DNA of 14,100 nucleotides, taken from Elusimicrobiota bacterium (GTDB lineage: Bacteria > Elusimicrobiota > Elusimicrobia > UBA1565). The DNA lies in NCBI GenBank assembly GCA_043819795.1, contig JBDREN010000094.1, positions 1 to 14,100 on the forward strand. The letters run 5' to 3'. A model generated the notes under the pieces. That model was not told the origin of the DNA and did no database searches. It saw only the letters and a list, made by a program, of their open reading frames with translations. The translations under genes and the position numbers were made by a program. Below, piece by piece: positions 1 to 11,763 of this stretch (position 1 is the first letter of the stretch; every line of letters begins with the position of its first letter).

Positions 1-38
1 GTCTCGCCGCTCCGTTATGTCCGGCCGTGTCAAGCCGC
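1..38 (-). repeat. Start of a pentamer-periodic (NN-RRC)n tract directly downstream of the RAMP gene; candidate guide/ncRNA, truncated by the window edge
   Basis: After the TGA the minus strand reads GCCAT GC-GGC TT-GAC AC-GGC CG-GAC AT-AAC GG-AGC GGC GA-GAC. That is six consecutive in-phase NN-RRC units, then one more after a 3-nt slip. Only 43 nt are visible. Confidence 0.5.
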
Positions 39-43
39 ATGGC

Positions 44-769
44 TCAGTCCACCTCCGCGCTCACGAGCTCGAATCGCCCATACCCGAGCGACAGGCAACT
101 CCCGATCCCTATCTTCGTCGCCGCCGCCAGCGTGCGCTTCAAGTCGTCCTTCGAGAACTTCCTCGCGGGCCAGGAGAACGCGAATGTGAACTCGCCGCCT
201 TCCTCGGCCGTCTCCGTGTGATGCTGGATGCTCTTCTTCCCCTGCGGCGTGCGAACGCTCCCGGAGATGAGCGCGTAGCTCGTCCCCACCGGACGGCCGT
301 TCCTGCGGAGGTAGATCTCCCAGGGGCGGACGAGGTCCTGCAAGCTCTCTCCGGCCGCCTCGACGGTCCCCATCTCCGCCACGTCTCCCTTCGCGCCGGG
401 TTTCGCCTTGAAAATCCCCATGCGCGAGGCCGCCTGTTTCAGCAGCGCCTTCACCATGTGCTCCAGGATGTACGGGCCTTTCTCGCCACGGCGAATCACG
501 TTGACCGCGTAGACGGACTCTTCCTTCACCTCCCCATCCTCGGGGGTCGTCTCGCGCTCCCCGATCTCCTCGCTCTGAATCCGGGCGAGGGCGGCGTCGA
601 ACTCCGCCGTGCCCGGGGCGAGGCCCAGGTGGTGCTCGGCGAACGCCCGAAGCGCCTTCTCTCCCGCCGGCTGCCCCCCGGCCAGGGGGCGTAGCAGTCG
701 GCACCGCACGACCGCGCGCTCCCGCTCAGCATCCAGCACGGCATCCAGGTCCCGCTGCGTCCAGCCCAT
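44..769 (-). CDS. Stand-alone RAMP superfamily protein, Cas7-group (Csm3/Cmr4-like), 241 aa
   Basis: RAMP motifs occur in the expected order: N-terminal strand RAVVRCRLLRPLAGG; GPYILEHMVKALLKQAA (cf. PYIPGSSxKGxxR); ETAEEGGEFTFAFSW (cf. E.v..Gt.F.f.i); C-terminal glycine-rich loop GIGSCLSLGYGRF (nt 71-109). SD GGGAGG precedes the ATG at 769. Confidence 0.8.
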   Translation of the reverse strand: MGWTQRDLDAVLDAERERAVVRCRLLRPLAGGQPAGEKALRAFAEHHLGLAPGTAEFDAALARIQSEEIGERETTPEDGEVKEESVYAVNVIRRGEKGPYILEHMVKALLKQAASRMGIFKAKPGAKGDVAEMGTVEAAGESLQDLVRPWEIYLRRNGRPVGTSYALISGSVRTPQGKKSIQHHTETAEEGGEFTFAFSWPARKFSKDDLKRTLAAATKIGIGSCLSLGYGRFELVSAEVD

Positions 770-820: not shown

Positions 821-1354
821 CTAGAACGGGACATCCGCCTCTTCCGGGGCGCCACCGAATGCGCGCTCCGCCTCCTCGTCCGAGATGCCCGTCTCCTCTT
901 CCGGCGCGGGGGCCGTGGCGGCCGCGCGCGGCGCAGGCGTACCCTCCTCTCGCCCCGGAGCGGCGTAGCCCGAGAACGGTACGCGGCGGCGTAGGCGACC
1001 CTGTTCAAGCTCCTCGGCGATAGTCACCATCGCAGACTTCCCCTTGACGCTATCGAAGATGATTCTCGCAAGGTGCCGTGCGGCCTCCTCATCATCGTCG
1101 GGTAGCGAGTGGTCTTTTGCCACTCCGCAGACACGCTGCGCTACGCAAGCGAGCCGGGGCAGAGTATTCCCAGTCACGAAGAGGTCGTCCTGGATGTTCT
1201 CGCCGGACGTGGCGACCCAGCCGAGGCGAACAAAGGGGGTTCCCTTCTTCGCCGACTTTCCTGCCGCGACCCGGACGCACTTGCACTGATAGGTTCCCGG
1301 CGGGGGAAGTTCCACATTCCCCCACGACTGTACGTCTTCGAGCGTTCGTACCAT
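821..1354 (-). CDS. Phage single-stranded DNA-binding protein, DUF669-like OB-fold, 177 aa
   Basis: N-terminal LPPPGTYQCKCVRV..KSAKKGTPFVRL resembles DUF669-type proteins. Ala/Pro linker and acidic tail ending EEADVPF, like the SSB DDIPF tip. Sits right after recT. Start reassigned to ATG 1354, just past the recT stop. Confidence 0.7.
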   Translation of the reverse strand: MVRTLEDVQSWGNVELPPPGTYQCKCVRVAAGKSAKKGTPFVRLGWVATSGENIQDDLFVTGNTLPRLACVAQRVCGVAKDHSLPDDDEEAARHLARIIFDSVKGKSAMVTIAEELEQGRLRRRVPFSGYAAPGREEGTPAPRAAATAPAPEEETGISDEEAERAFGGAPEEADVPF

Positions 1355-1355
1355 G

Positions 1356-2192
1356 TTACTTTTCCTTTTTCTCCGGCTCCTCCACCGCCTCCGGCTCCGC
1401 CGCGCGGATCGCCGAGGCCGGGATGGTGGCAACGTCCGGCTCTTGCCTCGCCTCGAAGTTCGGGCCGATGGTGGTGTCCTCTCGCGCGAGAAGGCCGCGG
1501 ACATCGGGCGACCACGCGCGCTTCGGGAGAATCTTGTAGAGCGCCCGGATTGCGGTCTTCTTCATCATTTCCTCCTCCCAGAGGTGCCACGGGGAATCTC
1601 TCGCTCCGGTCTTTTCTGCGTACTGGAATGCCTGGGAGCAGACCCGGCGCTTCGAGATGTCGTCGAGGGTCATCACGATGAACTGCGGGCGGCCGGTCGC
1701 AAGGTGTGCAACGGCGTAGACGAGGCGCGGCGCTCCTCGCTTCCAGGGGGCCAGTTCCGGCGTGTGCTCGATGCAGGAATCCGTCCCCTTCCGCACGCAG
1801 AACGTATCGTGCTCATAGACGATCTCCGCCTCGATGTTTGTGACAACCGAGCGCTCCACCAGATCTACCATGCCCTGGTAACCGAGCTGCAACACAATGT
1901 CGTTCTTGTACGGCACCAGATGCGCCTGGGCGAGCGGCCCGCCGATTTCGAGGTCGAGCGCCGCGGCCTCCAAGAGCGCCCCCATGAACATCGAGGGATT
2001 CGCGCGCGCCGCGGCCATGAGGCGCGGTTGTTGTCGTAAGAGCGTCAAGGTCACGCGCGCGAACCTGGAGGCCATCTTTAGCCGTTTTTCCTCGTCTCCG
2101 GCGACTGGCAACGCCCGGGCGATCTGCCGGACGAACTCCCCGTCGTCCTCCTCCGCGAGCGCAAGGACGACGTCCCGCTTACTCTCCGCCAT
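1356..2192 (-). CDS. recT: RecT-family single-strand annealing recombinase, 278 aa
   Basis: Typical RecT motifs: SMFMGALLEAAALDL, AHLVPY, LQLGYQGMVDLVERS, AEIVYEHDTF, VYAVAHL, PWHLWEEEMMKKTAIRALYKILP. Start reassigned to ATG 2192 with SD AAAGGAGG 8 nt upstream; overlaps the end of the nuclease gene. Confidence 0.93.
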   Translation of the reverse strand: MAESKRDVVLALAEEDDGEFVRQIARALPVAGDEEKRLKMASRFARVTLTLLRQQPRLMAAARANPSMFMGALLEAAALDLEIGGPLAQAHLVPYKNDIVLQLGYQGMVDLVERSVVTNIEAEIVYEHDTFCVRKGTDSCIEHTPELAPWKRGAPRLVYAVAHLATGRPQFIVMTLDDISKRRVCSQAFQYAEKTGARDSPWHLWEEEMMKKTAIRALYKILPKRAWSPDVRGLLAREDTTIGPNFEARQEPDVATIPASAIRAAEPEAVEEPEKKEK

Positions 2193-3024
2193 CGTCGTTT
2201 CCTCCTTTCGTCGGCCTCGTCCTTCCCCGACCCCCATAGGGGCACTGGCCCCAGTACCCGCACCAGCGCGGGCTGCAACACCATGACGCCGGGTCACACG
2301 GCGGGAACACGCCAGCCTCGATTTGTTTCAGCGCGGCGGCGATTCGCTCGAGCATCGCCGCAAGGTCCTCTTCGTCCCTCGTGGTCGAGAGGGTCATCGC
2401 CTTCGGGTTCTTCAGCGCAACGAGGTAGTCCAGGTGAATCGCCTCGGGCAGCGCCCCCCGGACGTACTTGTCCGCGAGCGCGTACATGGAGAGTTGTAGG
2501 CTCGTGTCCGCGGCGTTCCCCGATGGGGACTTCGCGGAGGTCTTGGTGTCGCGGATCGCGCGCGCCTCCAGGATGTCCGTCGTGCCCGCGAGGTCGTGCG
2601 AGAACCCCGTGAGTTCCAGCCGCCAGGACTTTTCCACGGCCACGGGCGCGAGGCTCGGCGCGACCTCGGCGTGATGGAGCGTCGCCAGGGTCACCGCCTT
2701 GTCCACCGCCTCGCCGCGGACCTCCGCCTCCGGCCGCTCGCGCTCGTCGTCGGTGAGAAGCACCCCCTCGTTCCAGGCGAGGAGCACCCCGTCTCGCGCG
2801 ACCTCGCGCACGGCCTCCTCGGCCAAGAGCGCGCCCCCCTCGATTTTGGCCGTCAGGTCCGCCGCGACGGCCCGGTGTGTGCCACTACCCACATGGGCCG
2901 CGCTCCCGGGCGGCATGATGAGGCCGCGGACGTACCGCCACTCGTACTGCTTCGGGCAGCGGTACAGCATCCCGAGGCCGGATTGGTGGAGTGTCGGCTT
3001 TGCGCGCCTGAAGGTCACTGGCAT
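2179..3024 (-). CDS. PD-(D/E)XK exonuclease (PDDEXK_1, RecB/Cas4/AddB-like, probably Fe-S), likely the RecT partner, 281 aa
   Basis: Motifs QSGLGMLYRCPKQY, GSGTH, E..W...LAGTTD...IRDTKT and QLSMYA. C-terminal Cys cluster CDPASWCCSPRWCGYWGQC. Directly upstream of recT. Confidence 0.88.
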   Translation of the reverse strand: MPVTFRRAKPTLHQSGLGMLYRCPKQYEWRYVRGLIMPPGSAAHVGSGTHRAVAADLTAKIEGGALLAEEAVREVARDGVLLAWNEGVLLTDDERERPEAEVRGEAVDKAVTLATLHHAEVAPSLAPVAVEKSWRLELTGFSHDLAGTTDILEARAIRDTKTSAKSPSGNAADTSLQLSMYALADKYVRGALPEAIHLDYLVALKNPKAMTLSTTRDEEDLAAMLERIAAALKQIEAGVFPPCDPASWCCSPRWCGYWGQCPYGGRGRTRPTKGGNDDGGE

Positions 3025-3525: not shown

Positions 3526-3565
3526 CATGTTATGTTGGAATTAGCGTACGCGCCGAACGAAGAAT

Positions 3566-3625
3566 CGTCACTATACAGCACTATACGCTTCTTCTGAATG
3601 CTATGCATTGCTATGCGTCACTACC
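3566..3625. repeat. AT-richer intergenic tract with 5-bp/10-bp periodicity
   Basis: Plus-strand pentamers: cgtca ctata cagca ctata cgctt cttct gaatg ctatg cattg ctatg cgtca ctacc. 11 of 12 start with C; CTA recurs at 3571, 3581, 3601, 3611 and 3621; CGTCACTA is repeated 50 bp apart. Confidence 0.7.
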
Positions 3626-3694: not shown

Positions 3695-6600
3695 CTACTC
3701 CCCCTTTCGCGTCGCCAGGTGCTTGTTCAGGCGTTGCATGCGTTCCCGGAAGGCGGCCCCGTCGAGCCGAATCGCGCGCTTTGGTGACTCCTCCCTGAGC
3801 CACGCCCGTAGCGTCTCCTCGGACTGGTCCGCCAGCAATTCTCCCGCGCGCGCCTGCGCCTTCTCCCACTCGCTCACCCTCTTCTCGTAATTCTCCTCCG
3901 TCTCCGGCTCGACTCCGCCGCCGCCCTTCCGGCGCTCGGGCCGAGGAGAGACGAGCGCCATGAGGCGCGAGCGCAGGGCCTTCTCCGAAAGCGCGCTCGG
4001 AGGAATGAGCGGGCGCGCAAGTTGTTTCGCCCCCTGATACGGTACGCCGCCGAAAACGCTTGCGCCGCTGGCGAGGCGGTCCAGGGCGCGCCAGATGCCG
4101 ACCTTCCACTTTTTCTCGCCGGCGTGCGAGCCGCGCTCGTACTCCTCGCCGGTCCCTGCCTGCACCCCCGCCCTGACGGCGTCCACCGCCCCCGTGATGG
4201 TGCTCAGGGTCGCGCTGGAGAGAACGTTGGTCTGCGGATCGAAGTACGGCCGACGATAGTACTGCGCCGCGGCGTAGGTGATGTCACGAAGGACCAGCAC
4301 GTTCCCGAAGATGGACAGGATGATATCGTAGACTGCATCCTCGACAATGGACTTGTCCTTCTCGTCGTCATCCCCGCCGCCGTAGAGCAGGCTGTGCAAC
4401 CCCTTGAATCCGGCCCTGACGCCATACGAAATCAGCCACACCCCCAAGGCGTTCACGACGGTAGGGTACAGGACCCGGGCGGTGAGCTTCTTCTTGTCCT
4501 CCAATGTGCGGGCGCTGTGTCCGTACTCGAAGAGGCCGCGCACCACCATGTTGTGGTACTTCGAGACCTGGCCGGAGAAGATGGCGAAGGCAACCCTGAT
4601 CAGCGGATTGTGCCGACCCGCGCGCTGGATGGCGTTGAGGGATTGCGGAGAGTAGGACGACTGCGTTAGCTCGACCAACTCTTCCGCCCGGAGGGCAGTC
4701 GCCTCCATGAGCGCCTCGCCTGTCAAGCCCCGCTCGGCTTGTTCCAGCTTCGCCGCCCGCCAGAGGCGGTCAATCGTCCACTGGTCGAGCACATGGATGG
4801 GCTTCATGCCGGCGTTCTGCGCCCGCGTGAACCAGCCTCCACTCTGGCCCGCGAACTCGGCCACCGTTTTATCCGTGAGGAACGGCGTCACGATGCGATG
4901 CGTAGAACCCTGCGCCCGCGCGTGCAGGATGGGCGAGTACCGATGCATCTCCTCGCGCGCCTGCGCCTTTTTCCCGAACATCGCGCGCGAGATGTGCCGG
5001 AGGTTTATTTCCGCCGCCGCCGGGACCAGGGATAGCAGCTGGAACAGCAGGACCCTGGCCTTGCCCACGAGGAGCGCGACGTTCGCGTTGCGCGAGAATT
5101 TGTGCAGCGCGCGTTCCAGGCCAGTCAAGGACCTCGTGGTCGGCTGCTCGTACTGCCGCAGGCCGTCCGCGAGGGTGCGCAGGATGTCAGGCCCGTACTT
5201 GTACCCATGCGTGACGGAGTTGCGGAATGTCGGGTCGTTGAGGAGCGTCCGCGCCTTTTTGATCGGGACGGCGAAGGCGGCGTAGGCGGAAACCTCGTGG
5301 ACGTGCCGCATGAACTCTTCCACGGCGTCGCCAATGATGAAGGGATCGTTGCTCGGCTCGCGCTCCTGTAGCCGGCCCGCGTCCTCCAGGTGTCGCTCGC
5401 CCCGCTGCGCGACGAACTGGTTGAAGGTGAACTGCTCCGCCTTCCCCTCGCCCCGCTTCCTGTGTCGGGGCCAGTGATGCTTTCGCAGCGGGACCTTGAC
5501 GCCCTGGTCCTCCAGCCAGGTCGCCTGATAGGCATGCGCGATGGGGCCGTCCGACAGGTAGTCCCCGATGGCGTCGGCGAACTTCCGCTCGTTCTCCGGC
5601 ATGGACTCGATGATGGCCTCGAAGTCCGCCGGGAAGAGCTTGATGGGAGTGATGCTCCGCGCCCCGGCGGCCACGATGCCCTGATGGCCAGCGCGAAGTA
5701 ACTCGTCCCTCGTGCTCGGGTCGCGCCAGTTGAGGTAGTAGCCCACGCGCTGAAAGGCGGTCATCTGGATTTTCGGCACGACCTGCATTCCCGCGCTGCT
5801 GCGCGCGAGCGGGAGAGCGATATCGAGAATCTTGGTATACGCCTTCCACCACGCCTTCCCAGTAAGCCCGGCGTCCTTCTCCGCCTGCACAAGGAACTCC
5901 TTTGCGTCCTGGAGGAATCTCGCCTGGACGCGCTCCGCCAGCCGGGGGGCCTCGCTCAAAGTCCGGTACGTCGCCGAACCCTCCGGCGCAAGGCGCGAGA
6001 CAGCTGTGAGGTGGTTGAACTGATCGCTGAGGAGAAGCCGCGCGACGAAGTTTTGCGCCTTCGCCTCGTCCACCAATCCAGGCTCCTTGGCATAGCGGGC
6101 GGGCGCGTTCTTCGCTACCTCCGCCGCCGCCTTCTCCACGACGGCCGGGAAAGACACCCGACGCCAGATGTGCGGGAGGTAGTCGCGGACGTTGTTGCCG
6201 AAAGTCTCGACCATTTTCGCCGTCCAGGCCGCGAGCGTGCGCAGGCCCTTGGCGAAGTAGTGCGCCCCGACGATGGTGGCGTTCTTCAAGACGCGCGGTC
6301 GCAGGCCCGCGAACATCGTCGTGCCGCCGAGGTCCTCGCGCAGCTCCCGCAGGGCCTTCTCCACCATGCCCTCGGTAGGCTTCCCGGGAACGATGTCCTC
6401 GGCGATGTACGCCTCGGGCGCGCCGAACTCCGCCCCCTCGCGCTCCTCTACGATGATGTCTTCAAGCTCAACGACGGCGTAGGCGGCCGGGACGCCCTCG
6501 GCCGGGAGGTCCGGGGCCGCGACGGCCGTCGCCGCGCCGCGCGTCATGGGCTTCGTCGGGAGAGCGGGGGCCGGGGGGGCCGGGGCGGCCGGAACGACAG

Positions 6601-9600
6601 GGGCCGCCAGGGCCGCCTTTTTCAGTTTTTCCGCCGCTTCCCTTGCCGCCCTCGCCTTTTCCTCTGCTTTCGCTGTCGCCCGTCTCCAACTCGGCTCCAA
6701 GCCACGCGCCCAAGCCTCCGCCTCCGTGGCCGCGCGCAACTCCTCGTATGCCTTACCCTTTTCCTTTCTCGACCCCCCCTTCTCCGCCTTTGCTGACGCC
6801 TCGCGCGCCCGCGCTAGTCTCTCCTTTGCTTTTTCCCACGACTTCTTCTTTTCGACCAACCCCGCTTGAACTCTTACCGATTCCGCCTCCCCTTCCGCTT
6901 TCACCGCTGCCGCTTCCGCCTCCGCCAGGGCCGCTTTCGCGGCCTCTGGCGCGACTTCCGCCGGGGCTGGCGCTGGGAGAGGGGGGGCCGGTTTCGGGGC
7001 CTCTGGCGGGGCTTCTACGGCCTCTGGCGCACGTGCTGGCGGGACTGGGGCGGCCGGGGCAGGGATCGCCGGGGCGGCCGGGCGCTCGGGGAGGAAGGCT
7101 TCCTTCCCGATGCGCTCCGTGATGTCCGCCGCCAACGTCCTCACCCTCTCGCTCTCGCTGAACAGCAAGGGCGTCACCTTCCCCAAGAGCGCCCTGTCTG
7201 TAAGCTTCCGCGCCGCAAGCTCTTCCAGCACGGGTAGCTCCATGCCGGGTTCCGAGAGAGCGTCCGCGAGCGCTGTATCCGGCAGGCCCTTCGCCGCCGC
7301 GCGCTGCTCCTCGCCCTTCGCCCTGGAGGCCCGTATGCGTTTCAGAAGAGCCATCTTGTTCATCCCGCCGGTCTTTATATCGTATTCTTCCGCTATCTCC
7401 CGGAGTTCGCCGAAGGACAGCGTCTCCAAGTCCTCGCCCTCGCCCGGTTTCTCGGGCGCAGCCTCCGCCGCTGGGCCGATTCGGCCAAGCGCCCGGGCGG
7501 CGTCCTCGCGCACGTTCCAATCCGCGTCGCGGAGCGCCTCGGCGAGCGCGGGGACCGTCGCCTTCGCCGCCGGGCCGATCAGGCCGAGCGCCCAGGCGGC
7601 GCCCCGGCGCACCCTCGCATCCTCATCGCCGAGCGCCTCGGCGAGCGCGGGGACCGCCACCTTCGCCGCTGGGCCAATCGAGCCGAGCGCCCGGGGGGCG
7701 TCCTCGCGCACGTCCGCATCCTCGTCGCGGAGCGCCTGGCCCCAATCCTCCGGCGTCCCGCTGAGCAGTGCCCTTTTCCACGCTTCGTTCGCCGCTAGGC
7801 CCGCGTCCTCGCCCTCGACCGGTTTCTCGGGCGCAGCCTCCGCCGCCGGCCCCGGGGGCGGGGCCTTCGACACAGGGGCCGAAACTGGCGCGAGGGGCGG
7901 GGGTTTCTCCACTGCCGGGGCCTCTGGCGACACCGGTGTCCCGGGGGACACCACCGGCGCTTGCCTCTCTGGCCCGACGAGCGCCCTTGCGACCATCTCC
8001 GCCTGGCCGGTCGGGAGTTCGGCGCGGGCTTTGGCAGCGATCTCCCGCACCGCTGGGCTGGGATGGTGGAGCGCTTCGGAAACCGCCGCCAGCGGTTCCT
8101 CCGCGAATTCCGGCATTTCAAGAGCCCGCCCGACGGCCTCCGCAAACAGCCTCCGGTTCGCTTCCTGCGTCACGTCGAATCCGAGGGCGCGCCGCGCGGC
8201 GAGCCGGCTCAACTGCCCCTTGCCCCTTCTTGCGGCCTCGACGACATCGAGCGCTTGTTCCTCGTGCGTCTGCACCCACGCCGCGACCTTTTCGGGGTCC
8301 AGCAAGTCCTCCCGCGCGATTTCCGCCGGGGCGGCCTTCGGCCGCTCCATCGGCCAAAGCCTCCGCCCTTCCACCTGCACGTAGCCCCCTTCAGGCGTGC
8401 GGACCGGGACCGCTCCGGGGGTCCAACCGGGCGCCCGAATCCCCGCAGCCGCGAGGAGCCGCCCGGTCTTTGTCTTGCCTTCCTCCTCCCACTGAACCAT
8501 CTGCCCGATGCGTAGATGCCGAACGTTCGAGGGCACGCCTTCCGCCGGGGCCGCCTCGGCCTCGACGGGAGGCAGGCGGCCTCCCTCTTCGGCTAGGATC
8601 GCCTCTGCGGGGGGCACCTTTGCTTCAAGAAGGTCCGACAAGGCTTTTGCTTCCTCGGCGTCCCCATGCCTTGCTTTACTGAGAGCCGAGACGGCTCCGG
8701 GGAAGGAAAAGATGCCAACCTCTTCCATCAGACGCTCGCGGTCGGGCCACTCTGCGACGAGCCGCTCGATGATGTTTTTGTCCTTGTGGCCGGAGATGTT
8801 GAAGACCGCGCGGAGAACGTCGGCAAGCCGCTCCTCACCGATTTCCTCCAGCATTCCGTGGAACCCGAGTTTCCGCAGCGCCGTTCTCCAGGGGCCGATC
8901 TTCCCCGGGGTCTCTTTCCACGCCTTGCCGAGAACCTTCTGCAGGACCGCCCTCTCCCCGGCCCGAAAGTACGTTCCCGCCTCTTCGGTCCCGTACTCGA
9001 TCATCTCGCCTGCAAAGGCGCGGAAGAACTCCGTCGCCGCCCCGGGGCGCGTGACGACCAGCTTGCCGTCCTGCAATTCAAGGCCGGGCGTCGTTCGCTC
9101 GGCGAACTCCGCTCCCACGCGGGGCGCGCCTACGGTCGCCGCGCGCGCGCCGGCAACGGTAGTCTCCGCAAGGGTGGCGGCCCCGAGGCGCCCGAGCCGA
9201 CTGCCTGCGACACTCTTTCCGAGAAGCTTTGTAGCGCCCTCGCGCACACCTTTGCGCACGCCCGCCGCCAGACCGCCAGTCGCCCATATCTCCGCCGCGA
9301 AGGGGACGAGACTTACAACTCCCCCGACGATGCGGGCAGCCATCGTGGTTTTGATTTCCCCCGCTCGCGCCTTGTCCTCCGCCCAATCCCGGACGAACGC
9401 GGCGGCGGCCACGGCCCGATACATGGGCACACTCCCGGGGTCCTGGCTTGCCTTCTCCAGCGTCGTCATGGCATACGTGAGCTTGTCCTTCGTGCCGAAA
9501 TTTTTTTCCATAGCCAAAATCGTTCCGAGAAAGGGAATGTCCTCTCCCCACTCTCGCGCGGCGAGCGACCCCAACACGCCCTTTGTCGGCGTGATGTCCG

Positions 9601-10111
9601 TCCAGGTTTTCTCCGGGTTGCTTTTCAAGTATCTATACAACCGGCCGTCATGTGTGCGCTTGTAGACGTATTCTCCGCTTTTGCTGTCCATCTGCTGGCC
9701 CGGTTCGAGGTACAACCATGGCGACTGCCTCTGACGGGCGGCTTCCTCTGCGGCTCGGGACCGCGCATCGCCACGGACTCGCACAAGCTCCCTTCGCAAC
9801 GACTCTCCGAGGCTTCCATGAAACGGAAGATTGAAACTGTAGCGCATCCCGGAGGGCCGTTCGTATTTCTCCGCGAGGCGATAGAGCGCGTTCCATTCGG
9901 CGTCACTGAAACTGGTGTCGTGCAAAACCGGACGCCCGCGCTCGATGTCCACTACCACGTCATTGAAAATCGGGCGCATGCGCTCCCGCACGTCCTCCGG
10001 TTTTTCTTCCCACGACGACGGCTCGAAATTCTCAAGTTCTTGCAGGGCCGAGAGGGGAGCTTCCGGTGCCTCGTTCAAAAGCTCGCCCAGCGCCGTCAGC
10101 GTTTCCGGCAT
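3695..10111 (-). CDS. Giant phage virion/ejection protein (large polyvalent-protein-like), 2138 aa, with internal HEAT repeats and a Rho-N/HeH-like motif
   Basis: 6.4-kb ORF. ATG 10111 overlaps the upstream stop (TGATG) with SD GGAGG. Last and largest gene of the virion cluster. Helical Ala/Gly-rich N-terminal part, Pro/Ala linkers, HEAT repeats, coiled coil, and C-terminal hydrophobic segments (nt 4289-4333 and 4418-4474). ORF is near certain; function is inferred from synteny and composition. Confidence 0.7.
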   Translation of the reverse strand: MPETLTALGELLNEAPEAPLSALQELENFEPSSWEEKPEDVRERMRPIFNDVVVDIERGRPVLHDTSFSDAEWNALYRLAEKYERPSGMRYSFNLPFHGSLGESLRRELVRVRGDARSRAAEEAARQRQSPWLYLEPGQQMDSKSGEYVYKRTHDGRLYRYLKSNPEKTWTDITPTKGVLGSLAAREWGEDIPFLGTILAMEKNFGTKDKLTYAMTTLEKASQDPGSVPMYRAVAAAAFVRDWAEDKARAGEIKTTMAARIVGGVVSLVPFAAEIWATGGLAAGVRKGVREGATKLLGKSVAGSRLGRLGAATLAETTVAGARAATVGAPRVGAEFAERTTPGLELQDGKLVVTRPGAATEFFRAFAGEMIEYGTEEAGTYFRAGERAVLQKVLGKAWKETPGKIGPWRTALRKLGFHGMLEEIGEERLADVLRAVFNISGHKDKNIIERLVAEWPDRERLMEEVGIFSFPGAVSALSKARHGDAEEAKALSDLLEAKVPPAEAILAEEGGRLPPVEAEAAPAEGVPSNVRHLRIGQMVQWEEEGKTKTGRLLAAAGIRAPGWTPGAVPVRTPEGGYVQVEGRRLWPMERPKAAPAEIAREDLLDPEKVAAWVQTHEEQALDVVEAARRGKGQLSRLAARRALGFDVTQEANRRLFAEAVGRALEMPEFAEEPLAAVSEALHHPSPAVREIAAKARAELPTGQAEMVARALVGPERQAPVVSPGTPVSPEAPAVEKPPPLAPVSAPVSKAPPPGPAAEAAPEKPVEGEDAGLAANEAWKRALLSGTPEDWGQALRDEDADVREDAPRALGSIGPAAKVAVPALAEALGDEDARVRRGAAWALGLIGPAAKATVPALAEALRDADWNVREDAARALGRIGPAAEAAPEKPGEGEDLETLSFGELREIAEEYDIKTGGMNKMALLKRIRASRAKGEEQRAAAKGLPDTALADALSEPGMELPVLEELAARKLTDRALLGKVTPLLFSESERVRTLAADITERIGKEAFLPERPAAPAIPAPAAPVPPARAPEAVEAPPEAPKPAPPLPAPAPAEVAPEAAKAALAEAEAAAVKAEGEAESVRVQAGLVEKKKSWEKAKERLARAREASAKAEKGGSRKEKGKAYEELRAATEAEAWARGLEPSWRRATAKAEEKARAAREAAEKLKKAALAAPVVPAAPAPPAPALPTKPMTRGAATAVAAPDLPAEGVPAAYAVVELEDIIVEEREGAEFGAPEAYIAEDIVPGKPTEGMVEKALRELREDLGGTTMFAGLRPRVLKNATIVGAHYFAKGLRTLAAWTAKMVETFGNNVRDYLPHIWRRVSFPAVVEKAAAEVAKNAPARYAKEPGLVDEAKAQNFVARLLLSDQFNHLTAVSRLAPEGSATYRTLSEAPRLAERVQARFLQDAKEFLVQAEKDAGLTGKAWWKAYTKILDIALPLARSSAGMQVVPKIQMTAFQRVGYYLNWRDPSTRDELLRAGHQGIVAAGARSITPIKLFPADFEAIIESMPENERKFADAIGDYLSDGPIAHAYQATWLEDQGVKVPLRKHHWPRHRKRGEGKAEQFTFNQFVAQRGERHLEDAGRLQEREPSNDPFIIGDAVEEFMRHVHEVSAYAAFAVPIKKARTLLNDPTFRNSVTHGYKYGPDILRTLADGLRQYEQPTTRSLTGLERALHKFSRNANVALLVGKARVLLFQLLSLVPAAAEINLRHISRAMFGKKAQAREEMHRYSPILHARAQGSTHRIVTPFLTDKTVAEFAGQSGGWFTRAQNAGMKPIHVLDQWTIDRLWRAAKLEQAERGLTGEALMEATALRAEELVELTQSSYSPQSLNAIQRAGRHNPLIRVAFAIFSGQVSKYHNMVVRGLFEYGHSARTLEDKKKLTARVLYPTVVNALGVWLISYGVRAGFKGLHSLLYGGGDDDEKDKSIVEDAVYDIILSIFGNVLVLRDITYAAAQYYRRPYFDPQTNVLSSATLSTITGAVDAVRAGVQAGTGEEYERGSHAGEKKWKVGIWRALDRLASGASVFGGVPYQGAKQLARPLIPPSALSEKALRSRLMALVSPRPERRKGGGGVEPETEENYEKRVSEWEKAQARAGELLADQSEETLRAWLREESPKRAIRLDGAAFRERMQRLNKHLATRKGE
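7430..7846. repeat. 42-bp direct repeats (7430-7471 and 7805-7846, one mismatch) enclosing about three 99-bp HEAT (PBS-lyase-like) repeat units
   Basis: gtcctcgccctcg(c/a)ccggtttctcgggcgcagcctccgccgc occurs twice, 375 bp apart. GAGCGCCT recurs at 7532, 7631 and 7730. Protein unit LxDxDxxVRxxAxxALGxIGPAAKxxVPALAEA (33 aa). Confidence 0.9.
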
Positions 10112-11763
10112 CACTGGCCTCCTGCAAGTGCAAGAGCCTTCCGAAACGAGTCCCGAATCGTACCAAACTCGCCGTCAATCGCTCGGAGCGCGGCGATGAT
10201 TTCCCGCCGTTCCTCCCCCGTGGCATGAGGAAGGAGACCTTCCAGTCGCGCCCTCTCCGCCTTCAGCACAGGCACACGCTCGTTCGCCTTCCGGGCGTCG
10301 TCTTGAAACTCCGGGGGGAAGTCGCTAACGTCTGGCGGTCGCGGGGCGGCCGGGGCCGCCGGGGCCTCGCCGGATGCCGGGGCCGGAACGCCAGCCCCGC
10401 CGGGGGTCGGGACCGCCGCCCCACCGGGGGCCGCGGCCGCTGCTCCTCGCGGCTCCGGGGCCTGCCCGGCCATGAGAGCAACGTTGTCAACCAAGTTCGC
10501 CGCTGCGGCGGCAGCCATCTCCGGCGAGGAGTATATTGGGTTTCCCTTGTAGTCCGTCAGCTTCATATTCATAAGGTTTAGTGCAAGCGCAAGAATCCGG
10601 TCTGCGCGGTCCCGCGTCATTTGTTCATTGCGGTACTCGATGTCCATCTGCCGCCGACGATTTCCAAGTTCCTTCCCCTCCGCTTGAAGGGGGGCCAAGA
10701 TAGCCCGCCTGTCGTTCTCGATGTCCGCAAGGTTGTTGGCGTGTGTCTGTCTCTCCTCCGTCAAAGCCGTCTGCTGCTGCGCCACGGCGAGGTTTCCGCT
10801 ACGGATTTTCTCCATCTCCCTGTTGGTACGCTCGATCTCATTCTGCTTGCGCTCATCCATAACGGCATTCTCGGCGCTTGTCTTCTCGTCCAAGGCGCGT
10901 TTCGCCTCGTCCAACTCCGCCTTGCGTTTGGCTTCCTCCGTCTCGCGCTGCTCCGTCCGCTTCTTTCGCGCCGCCTCTTCCCGTGCCTCCTCCGCCTTGA
11001 ACTTCTCCGCTTCGTACTTCTGCTCCGCCTCCTTCTGCCCGGCTTCGATCTCAGTCCTGTTGAAAATGGGCTTTGGCAGCGGGGCGCCGTTCTCGTCTAT
11101 CCCGAAGACGTTGCCCTGGTCGTCCGTATAGGTCTTCTGCGCGAAAAGCTCCTCTGGCGTCGGCTCGCGCTTCCCCTGCGCCGTCTCCATGATGCCTTCC
11201 TCTTGCCCGTCCAGAACGGCAATCATCTGGCGGCCCCACTCCGGGCGGTATTGTCCACTGTACACCCTGGTGGCGATGCTCCGGCGGGCGAAGTTGATTT
11301 GACCGAGGGCGCGCTGAGTGTCCGGGGAGAGCCGAATCGGGGCAGGCATCGGCGTGGGAAATTGAAGCTGGCTCGCCGCCATCTTGGCATCTTCTGCCGC
11401 CATGCGCGCCTGAAGGGCAGCAAGCTCGTTCTGCGTACTCTGCGCTTCCTCAGGCTCTCCCTTTGCTTGTCGCCGCGCCAATTCTTCCATCAACCCCTGC
11501 TCGACGACCGCCTCGCGCTCCCACGCGATGGCTTCGTCCTGCGCGGCCTGCGCGATGCCCATCCGGTCGAAGCTGGTGATTCCCCCAGGCGTCCGAGGGA
11601 CGACCCCGAGGCTCGATGTCGTCCGCCCCATCGTCATCCCGGAGCCGGACGCCTCCGGCGGCTCGCCCCCCCCTCCACCGCCGCGCGGCGCGTTCGCCAA
11701 CCCCGCGAGAAGCGCGAGTTGCAGCAAGGCGCTCGGGTCACCGTATCGGACTTCTATCGGCAT
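10111..11763 (-). CDS. Putative ejection/internal virion protein with long coiled coil, 550 aa
   Basis: SD AGGAGG overlapping the upstream TAG. E/K/R/A/Q-rich central coiled coil and Pro/Ala linker. Lies between a small Gly/Gln-rich gene and the giant gene, as in podovirus ejection clusters. Confidence 0.6.
   Translation of the reverse strand: MPIEVRYGDPSALLQLALLAGLANAPRGGGGGGEPPEASGSGMTMGRTTSSLGVVPRTPGGITSFDRMGIAQAAQDEAIAWEREAVVEQGLMEELARRQAKGEPEEAQSTQNELAALQARMAAEDAKMAASQLQFPTPMPAPIRLSPDTQRALGQINFARRSIATRVYSGQYRPEWGRQMIAVLDGQEEGIMETAQGKREPTPEELFAQKTYTDDQGNVFGIDENGAPLPKPIFNRTEIEAGQKEAEQKYEAEKFKAEEAREEAARKKRTEQRETEEAKRKAELDEAKRALDEKTSAENAVMDERKQNEIERTNREMEKIRSGNLAVAQQQTALTEERQTHANNLADIENDRRAILAPLQAEGKELGNRRRQMDIEYRNEQMTRDRADRILALALNLMNMKLTDYKGNPIYSSPEMAAAAAANLVDNVALMAGQAPEPRGAAAAAPGGAAVPTPGGAGVPAPASGEAPAAPAAPRPPDVSDFPPEFQDDARKANERVPVLKAERARLEGLLPHATGEERREIIAALRAIDGEFGTIRDSFRKALALAGGQ

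Follow-up and report, generated by a model that had tools for sequence, protein, structure and literature searches.

A tract of six pentamers, in each of which a variable dinucleotide (NN) precedes a more constant triplet, lies at the very edge of a 14,100-nt stretch of Elusimicrobiota DNA (hereafter the window) and raises the question of whether it is the start of a guide-RNA array, the start of an ordinary protein gene or a chance pattern. A natural comparison is VIPR, a system put forward in 2026 as ancestral to CRISPR effectors, which combines the protein Vipr with a vrRNA, as described for the type II systems of SUSP1 and P. fulva (Yoon et al. 2026, bioRxiv 10.64898/2026.04.26.720920; structures in 10.64898/2026.04.26.720927). 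Characterised VIPR systems are GGY-based and carry 9–16 repeats, while the family definition permits a related consensus; NNNGG, YNNNG and NNNNG are given as alternative units, and staggered arrays are also described (10.64898/2026.04.26.720920).

The tract and its surroundings

The first-pass annotation had described six pentamers truncated at the window edge, and both observations held. The pentamers lie at 38..9 of the minus strand, and since base 1 of the window is also base 1 of contig C94, the window edge coincides with the contig end. Two contigs from public DNA runs extend 224 and 92 nt beyond base 1, which marks the edge as a break in the assembly. Among the other contigs of the host genome (G000), none overlaps the base-1 end of C94. 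An ATG at 40..38 on the minus strand opens a stop-free frame of 13 codons up to the edge. The 30-mer had zero exact matches in the metagenome collection, and no homolog was present in 60 relatives or in a 400-genome sample of the phylum (two partly overlapping sets). No RNA holder was listed for the tract, a blank that is uninformative as to expression. Taken alone, the 30-mer is rare though neither unique nor decisive, as a scan of both strands of the 4.99-Mb genome returned (NN-RRC)6 four times, including the window, and (NN-RRC)7 not at all; it is the neighbouring gene that settles its identity.

That gene, here called vipr-like, encodes the protein P0001 and has its stop codon at 46..44, with the tract beginning 4 nt downstream on the same minus strand. 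When the tract was parsed with the grammar of homologous arrays described below, several details of the first description changed (Table 1). A constant RRC triplet had been read in phase up to the edge, with a variable string starting with GC. In relatives the scaffold is N-A-Y; GC belongs to a fixed junction and the string starts with TT (TT, AC, CG, AT, GG, with triplets GAC, GGC, GAC and AAC); and a second junction (11..6) shifts the phase, leaving one pentamer (5..1) that is 3 nt out of register. The full grammar (junction, four pentamers, NN, junction, pentamer) had one match in the host genome, namely the window tract, and a single junction-bounded segment of any length from 3 to 9 had eight. 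No promoter-like or terminator-like site was found near the spacer between stop codon and tract.

Table 1. Features of the vipr-like locus and the adjoining recombination block, in window coordinates.
Feature	Coordinates	Strand	Basis or remark
PD-(D/E)XK exonuclease	3024..2179	-	upstream recombination block
RecT	2192..1356	-	upstream recombination block
Unannotated 177-aa ORF	1354..821	-	upstream recombination block
vipr-like gene (P0001, 241 aa)	44..769	-	predicted RAMP/RRM fold: N-terminal helical bundle, thumb hairpin, C-terminal glycine-rich loop
4-nt spacer, stop codon to first junction	40..43	-	sequence; without space for a separate promoter
First xGCGGY junction, T form (the 'GC-GGC' unit of the first-pass annotation)	34..39	-	sequence and junction classes in relatives
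Segment 1: four pentamers and last NN	12..33	-	sequence; grammar as in 305 segments of relatives
Second junction AGCGGC, the commonest form (202/305)	6..11	-	sequence; 28 nt past the first junction (5n+8)
Segment 2, first pentamer (NN = GA), cut by contig end	1..5	-	sequence

The ORFs of the window are phage genes, with virion-type genes beyond those for RecT and the exonuclease, and the GC content (66.3%) is close to that of the genome (66.8%). The recombination block (821..3024, minus strand) is likely co-transcribed with the vipr-like gene and serves as context only; apart from one PD-(D/E)XK match, at locus L025, it is not conserved beside homologs. No cas gene was present within the window, which lacks its left flank because of the contig end, and Cas1 was absent from the host genome (90% complete). 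There was no cas1, cas5, cas6 or cas10 nearby, and no conserved cas-like neighbour across 44 loci. Similarly, no non-Vipr protein family that might represent a vap gene recurred in more than two locus groups (ORFs of at least 70 aa, blastp, many short contigs). The P0001 locus thus stands alone, outside CRISPR-cas and in a mostly viral setting, and has neither the cas operon nor the repeat-spacer array with contiguous spacers of a Class 1 CRISPR-Cas locus.

Elsewhere in the window, a 2139-aa ORF (10114..3695), the C-terminus of which matches PHROG 28077, contains three 99-nt HEAT-repeat units on the minus strand (7430-7852), bounded by two direct copies of a 48-nt sequence (7430-7477 and 7805-7852, 94% identical). 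These units look like a cassette inserted into a large virion-type protein; no similar DNA was found elsewhere in G000.

The neighbouring gene and its predicted fold

By sequence, P0001 had zero PDB matches, belonged to no NCBIfam or PHROG family and had no tblastn homolog among 50,697 GenBank phages; its match to the Pfam RAMPs family (E=0.005) fell below the cut-off. Its AF2 model (pLDDT 94) matched type VII Cas7 and Csm3 in Foldseek (E 1e-9) and Cas7/Csm3/Cmr4 best in VIA (Z 11.4–11.9, range 11–12), the top VIA match having a Z of 11.9 and an rmsd of 4.2 over 159 aligned residues. Identity to solved Cas7/Csm3 chains was 10–20% (12–19% for the VIA matches). A Vipr chain was absent from the fold-search matches, the Foldseek library ending on 8 April 2026, before the VIPR preprints. 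The model contains the RRM core, thumb and G-loop of a RAMP homolog, and the G-loop (P0001 221-231) is conserved in the family alignment. The family comprises 66 close members and 101 representatives (50% clustering) at E below 1e-30, and the atlas clusters nearest to P0001 are 88–100% viral.

SUSP1 Vipr was located in NC_028808 by its position and from residues named in the structural preprint (10.64898/2026.04.26.720927). The hhalign comparison of the P0001 clade with the SUSP1 Vipr family gave 77% over 59 columns only, in the G-loop region, and 91% over 141 columns when made via a sister clade. The latter (P0165-P0211, alignment A5) consists of RAMP-like proteins of 200-315 aa with KRGSK and TPQG motifs in common, and bridges the P0001 clade to SUSP1 Vipr. 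According to the structural text, D177 and W178 of SUSP1 Vipr read G1 and G2, and D177/W178/R179 together read three scaffold bases (10.64898/2026.04.26.720927). These residues align to S224, C225 and L226 of P0001 in a weak alignment (probability 5%), the G-loop register of which agrees with hhalign. The replacement of D177/W178 by S224/C225 is consistent with a free first triplet base and with a change from G to A at the second, which is the pattern seen in the arrays.

Arrays in homologous loci

Homolog searches yielded 44 loci, or 37 after removal of seven near-duplicates. An array of at least three segments was found in 27 of the 37, starting within 250 nt of the stop codon in 20, 1.1 kb downstream in one and upstream in six. 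Among the closest loci with at least 150 nt of downstream sequence, all 11 had an array within 250 nt of the stop. The remaining 10 loci comprised three with short arrays (L022, L028, L044), three cut after an array-like start (L010, L012, L018), two in which the contig ends inside the gene (L008, L016), one with its array 21 kb away (L027) and one without an array (L024). Clusters of at least three segments were all on the strand of the gene. L024 is a full-length homolog (40% identity) on a 26-kb contig, and the 5 kb to each side of it contain no array; it is either an orphan or has its array elsewhere along the contig.

Several loci showed individual features. The array of L001 comprises 18 segments. 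The distant array of L027 (G414, a 163-kb virus record; L117:1-1420) is 1.4 kb long, has mostly xGCAGC junctions and lies between two phage genes, ~21 kb from vipr. In L013, the main array is upstream of vipr and a one-segment remnant with a terminator-like hairpin follows the stop codon (3533-3620 and 1514-2340), which suggests that the array moved. A phage tmRNA and a tRNA (L041:4721-5247) lie 2 kb downstream of the array of L041, and a second stretch of raised period-5 similarity lies 1.7 kb upstream of the main array in G413 (L113:2700-3000).

The arrays of relatives followed the grammar [NN-N-A-Y]n NN xGCGGY, with NN-N-A-C as the unit, which is neither NN-RRC nor the canonical GGY-NN. They are tandem pentamers adjacent to the gene, with hypervariable NN and fixed positions, in which a fixed xGCGGY junction interrupts the phase every 5n+8 nt. 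Information by pentamer position was 0.04, 0.01, 0.10, 0.95 and 1.14 bits (1427 pentamers, scaffold bases unfiltered). Junction spacing was 3 mod 5 in 268 of 345 intervals compared to 38 of 216 in the flanks, a comparison that is partly circular because 5n+8 segments had served to delimit the spans in the first place. AGCGGC closed 202 of the 305 unique segments; 213 had 5–7 NN, with some reaching 10–12, and the last NN was biased towards CG, GG, GA and AG (165 of 305). Internal triplets (n = 1604) were mainly GAC (460), AAC (234), CAC (203) and TAC (137), with GGC and GGT together accounting for only 92; the clade arrays depart from the canonical GGY/NN consensus in 9–16 uninterrupted repeats. 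The free first triplet base was G in 41%, A in 22%, C in 22% and T in 15%. In AT-richer arrays (L009:955-1590, L019:640-1590 and L023:940-1300), nothing but the junction (AGCGGT, AGCAGT) and the last pyrimidine of each pentamer was kept; these sequences suggest that the scaffold can erode to NNNNY.

Comparison of homologous segments (17 pairs, with ~2.6 pairs expected by chance) showed changes at 20/112 N1, 27/112 N2, 11/95 t1, 3/95 t2 and 2/95 t3 sites, or 0.18, 0.24, 0.12, 0.03 and 0.02 per site, such that NN changed faster than the scaffold. The first triplet base, with its low information content, changed 4–5 times more than the last two, and the Asp that reads G1 is replaced in P0001 (by the weak alignment). 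Both observations would fit a three-base code, in which the unit is NNN-AC, the free base pairs with the canonically skipped base and each segment specifies ~17 contiguous bases. We consider such a code quite improbable: as expected of a relaxed scaffold, the first triplet base changes less than NN (0.12 vs 0.18–0.24), keeps its G bias, depends little on NN (mutual information ≤0.023 bits) and does not clearly avoid stop-codon triplets.

Both within a locus and between loci, duplication and variation of segments involved whole units from junction to junction. This behaviour bears on whether the junction is a mere register break in what is still a VIPR array, so that two or more segments jointly specify ~20–26 bases, or the arrays are of the 'staggered' type in Fig. 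S18 of Yoon et al. Either arrangement would solve a problem of specificity, as 10–12 bases per segment is little, and would be in line with the 9–16 repeats of characterised vrRNAs (10.64898/2026.04.26.720920), with the 10–12 NN of some segments and with the 1-nt overlap in the legend of Fig. S18, which could fit the shared C at the junction. However, duplication as whole units argues against it, and read-through would require a subunit on a 3-nt unit lacking NN, for which the text of the structural preprint gives no precedent (10.64898/2026.04.26.720927). We therefore regard this reading as unlikely.

Stop codons interrupted all three frames in 20 of 26 arrays, lag-5 similarity exceeded lag-3 similarity in all 26, and an ATG lay near the stop codon in only seven. 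No conserved downstream protein was found at homolog loci. These results count against an ordinary protein gene at ATG-40, which the first-pass annotation had offered as the alternative to a guide RNA, and against a chance GC-rich pattern. What speaks for such explanations is the stop-free frame to the edge, the occurrence of (NN-RRC)6 at three other genome sites and the single open frame in a few relative arrays (six loci: L001, L002, L005, L007, L021 and L032), yet the full grammar is unique in the genome to the window. Coding or chance is already largely refuted, and we give it very little weight. NN frequencies correlated weakly with those of sense codon positions 1–2 (one of four comparisons; rho 0.51, p 0.043), a correlation that we do not count as support, and a test for a single codon orientation within segments fell short of significance (p=0.29).

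Arrays started a few bases past the stop codon and ran up to the following ribosome site or a promoter-like site. Inspection of array ends revealed no shared 3' tail, and hence none of the conserved structured kind; folding did not exceed that of shuffles in two arrays (z +1.25 and +0.74), and no Rfam ribozyme was found in 11 sources. The arrays thus look like parts of mRNAs, from which guides would need to be cut or delimited. A Csm3-type RNase was rejected as a processing route: the acidic residue of Csm3, which we take to sit just before the 'VIK/VIR' strand (S. thermophilus Csm3 position), corresponds to A88 in P0001 and is non-acidic across the family alignment. By eye, a sigma-70-like promoter (TTGAC[AT], 17 nt, TA-like box) was seen no more than ~50 nt past the last segment in L001, L002, L005, L006, L019 and L025, and the stretch that follows it in L005 and L006 is one that we take to be excisionase-like. 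Integrases occur near the arrays of L021 and L039.

Relation to known systems and proposed mode of action

It is very likely that P0001 and the tract form a VIPR-like protein-array pair, and their system probably works like VIPR as a member of that family. Like SUSP1 VIPR, the locus has a stand-alone phage RAMP gene without cas genes or a CRISPR array, an adjacent fixed-plus-variable pentamer array ending in a pyrimidine, with the canonical GGY held in the clade junction, and a protein with profile similarity to SUSP1 Vipr. In contrast to SUSP1 VIPR, the internal triplet is N-A-Y rather than GGY, units are parted by a 6-nt junction rather than by tails and promoters, a shared structured 3' tail is lacking, no conserved vap gene was seen among ORFs of at least 70 aa, and the clade protein is longer (~245 vs 195 aa) with S/C/L in place of D177/W178/R179. 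Units also hold 5–7 NN instead of the 9–16 of characterised systems. For SUSP1, GGY>GAY is reported among the tested substitutions, and perturbation of GGY abolished silencing (10.64898/2026.04.26.720920, 10.64898/2026.04.26.720927).

The Evo-PIN/COMPASS survey describes, computationally only, GAC/NN and CAC/NN arrays beside Vipr-like folds (10.64898/2026.10.21.760802). The clade shares these GAC and CAC triplets and may be among the 21 clusters of that survey, but the modelling in its sections 2.3 and 4.22 is confined to tandem XYZNN units and leaves the free first base, the phase-breaking junction and segment lengths unmentioned (10.64898/2026.10.21.760802). According to the legend of Fig. 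S18, successive vrRNAs of a staggered array overlap by 1 nt, each starting where the previous one ends (10.64898/2026.04.26.720920). The clade arrays resemble them in placing putative vrRNAs back to back, each delimiting its neighbour; by the legend alone, they differ in having a 3-nt extra triplet (5n+8) instead of a 1-nt overlap. The free first triplet base, periodic junction and tail-less mini-segments are undescribed in the consulted text of the 2026 preprints, although figures S17 and S18 of Yoon et al. and figure S10 of the COMPASS survey may show them. Overall, GAC/NN, CAC/NN and 'staggered' arrays are already in the 2026 preprints, whereas the junction-segmented N-A-Y architecture is undescribed in their consulted text. 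With Class 1 CRISPR-Cas, the clade has in common the Cas7/Csm3 fold family and a fixed element alternating with variable units in one long transcript; however, the fixed element is 6 nt and not 25–40, the variable units are pentamer-coded and not contiguous spacers, and cas1, cas5, cas6 and cas10 are not nearby.

Searches for targets remained at chance. No excess of matches under skips of 0–3 nt was observed for 265 segments with at least 5 NN (301 parsed) in the pooled loci and host genome; 0-nt-skip matches of 7-NN segments in G000 numbered 7 vs 3.4 ± 1.3, as one of 32 comparisons. Three array-bearing virus records likewise showed no excess against their own arrays. A 3-nt-skip excess in G414 (10 perfect matches) was an artefact of one of two array blocks being unmasked, and no second array copy existed elsewhere. 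Three IMG/VR motif scans returned 5, 50 and 6 matches, which on extension agreed at best in 17, 18 and 19 of 20 bases and never over the full length. In the host genome, segment 1 had four matches vs 4.2 for permutations, its contiguous 14-mer had none (an uninformative result), and the pattern of six NN with 1-nt gaps suggested in the first-pass annotation had none vs 0.28 for permutations. The power of these tests is low, since a segment specifies 10–14 bases and environmental targets are unsampled; the proposed recognition code is therefore carried over from SUSP1 by homology.

Chance-level searches are also what would be expected if the array were a binding scaffold or decoy, for example one through which Vipr regulates its own operon, or a sponge that takes up RAMP subunits from rival VIPR or host CRISPR systems. 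The position of arrays inside operons, near stop codons, ribosome sites and promoter-like sites, would suit such a role, and use of a vrRNA as a decoy has been reported (10.64898/2026.10.15.759431). A scaffold or decoy would not need hypervariable NN, however, yet NN change ~8 times faster than the fixed bases, and one array lies 21 kb from its own vipr gene; we consider this role improbable.

On balance, we favour the reading in which the tract is the start of the guide array of a divergent VIPR, where Vipr would coat junction-bounded segments and their NN, skipping one base at a time, would bind and silence rival DNA. The idea of a guide-type RNA is well supported; the recognition code and the processing are what we infer. 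The first-pass proposal of the 5' end of a repeat-encoded guide RNA therefore stands as regards a non-coding array beside a predicted RAMP-fold gene, homologs of which have long arrays in the same place, but a chain of short segments replaces the one guide envisaged. By analogy with SUSP1 VIPR, the array would be co-transcribed with vipr, and one Vipr subunit per pentamer would coat the RNA, flip out the triplet (N-A-Y) and present NN. NN would pair with DNA, with one target base skipped per unit, and binding would repress transcription of a competing phage or element. Cutting of the target would not be expected because no nuclease partner is conserved. From clade anatomy, the junction may be the last triplet of one unit (NGC) directly abutting GGY, the canonical opening triplet of its successor, with NN omitted, and might mark an RNA cut site or a filament boundary. 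Each 23–43-nt segment would then be its own guide for ~10–14 target bases, with 4–26 guides per locus.

More tentatively, the arrays could be multiplex and CRISPR-like, that is, a tail-less transcript in which the 6-nt junction serves as the 'repeat' between 4–40 mini guides of ~30 nt, used by a Vipr whose N-A-Y pocket is orthogonal to SUSP1 VIPR; this is possible, but we would not presume it. If this is true, we know of no smaller guide array of repeat-spacer style, and the clade would serve as a living model of the transition between single vrRNAs and processed CRISPR arrays. Arrays of the N-A-Y type would be missed by GGY-based array callers, e.g. that of Lopez et al. (10.64898/2026.10.15.759431). 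The clade raises the questions of the minimum number of NN, of how multiplex vrRNAs are processed without Cas6, a tail or a ribozyme, and of whether the freed scaffold base has a role in targeting. Comparison of its arrays and proteins also suggests that the scaffold code can shift in step with the G-loop residues responsible for reading it, and such joint change predicts an orthogonal Vipr-RNA pair.
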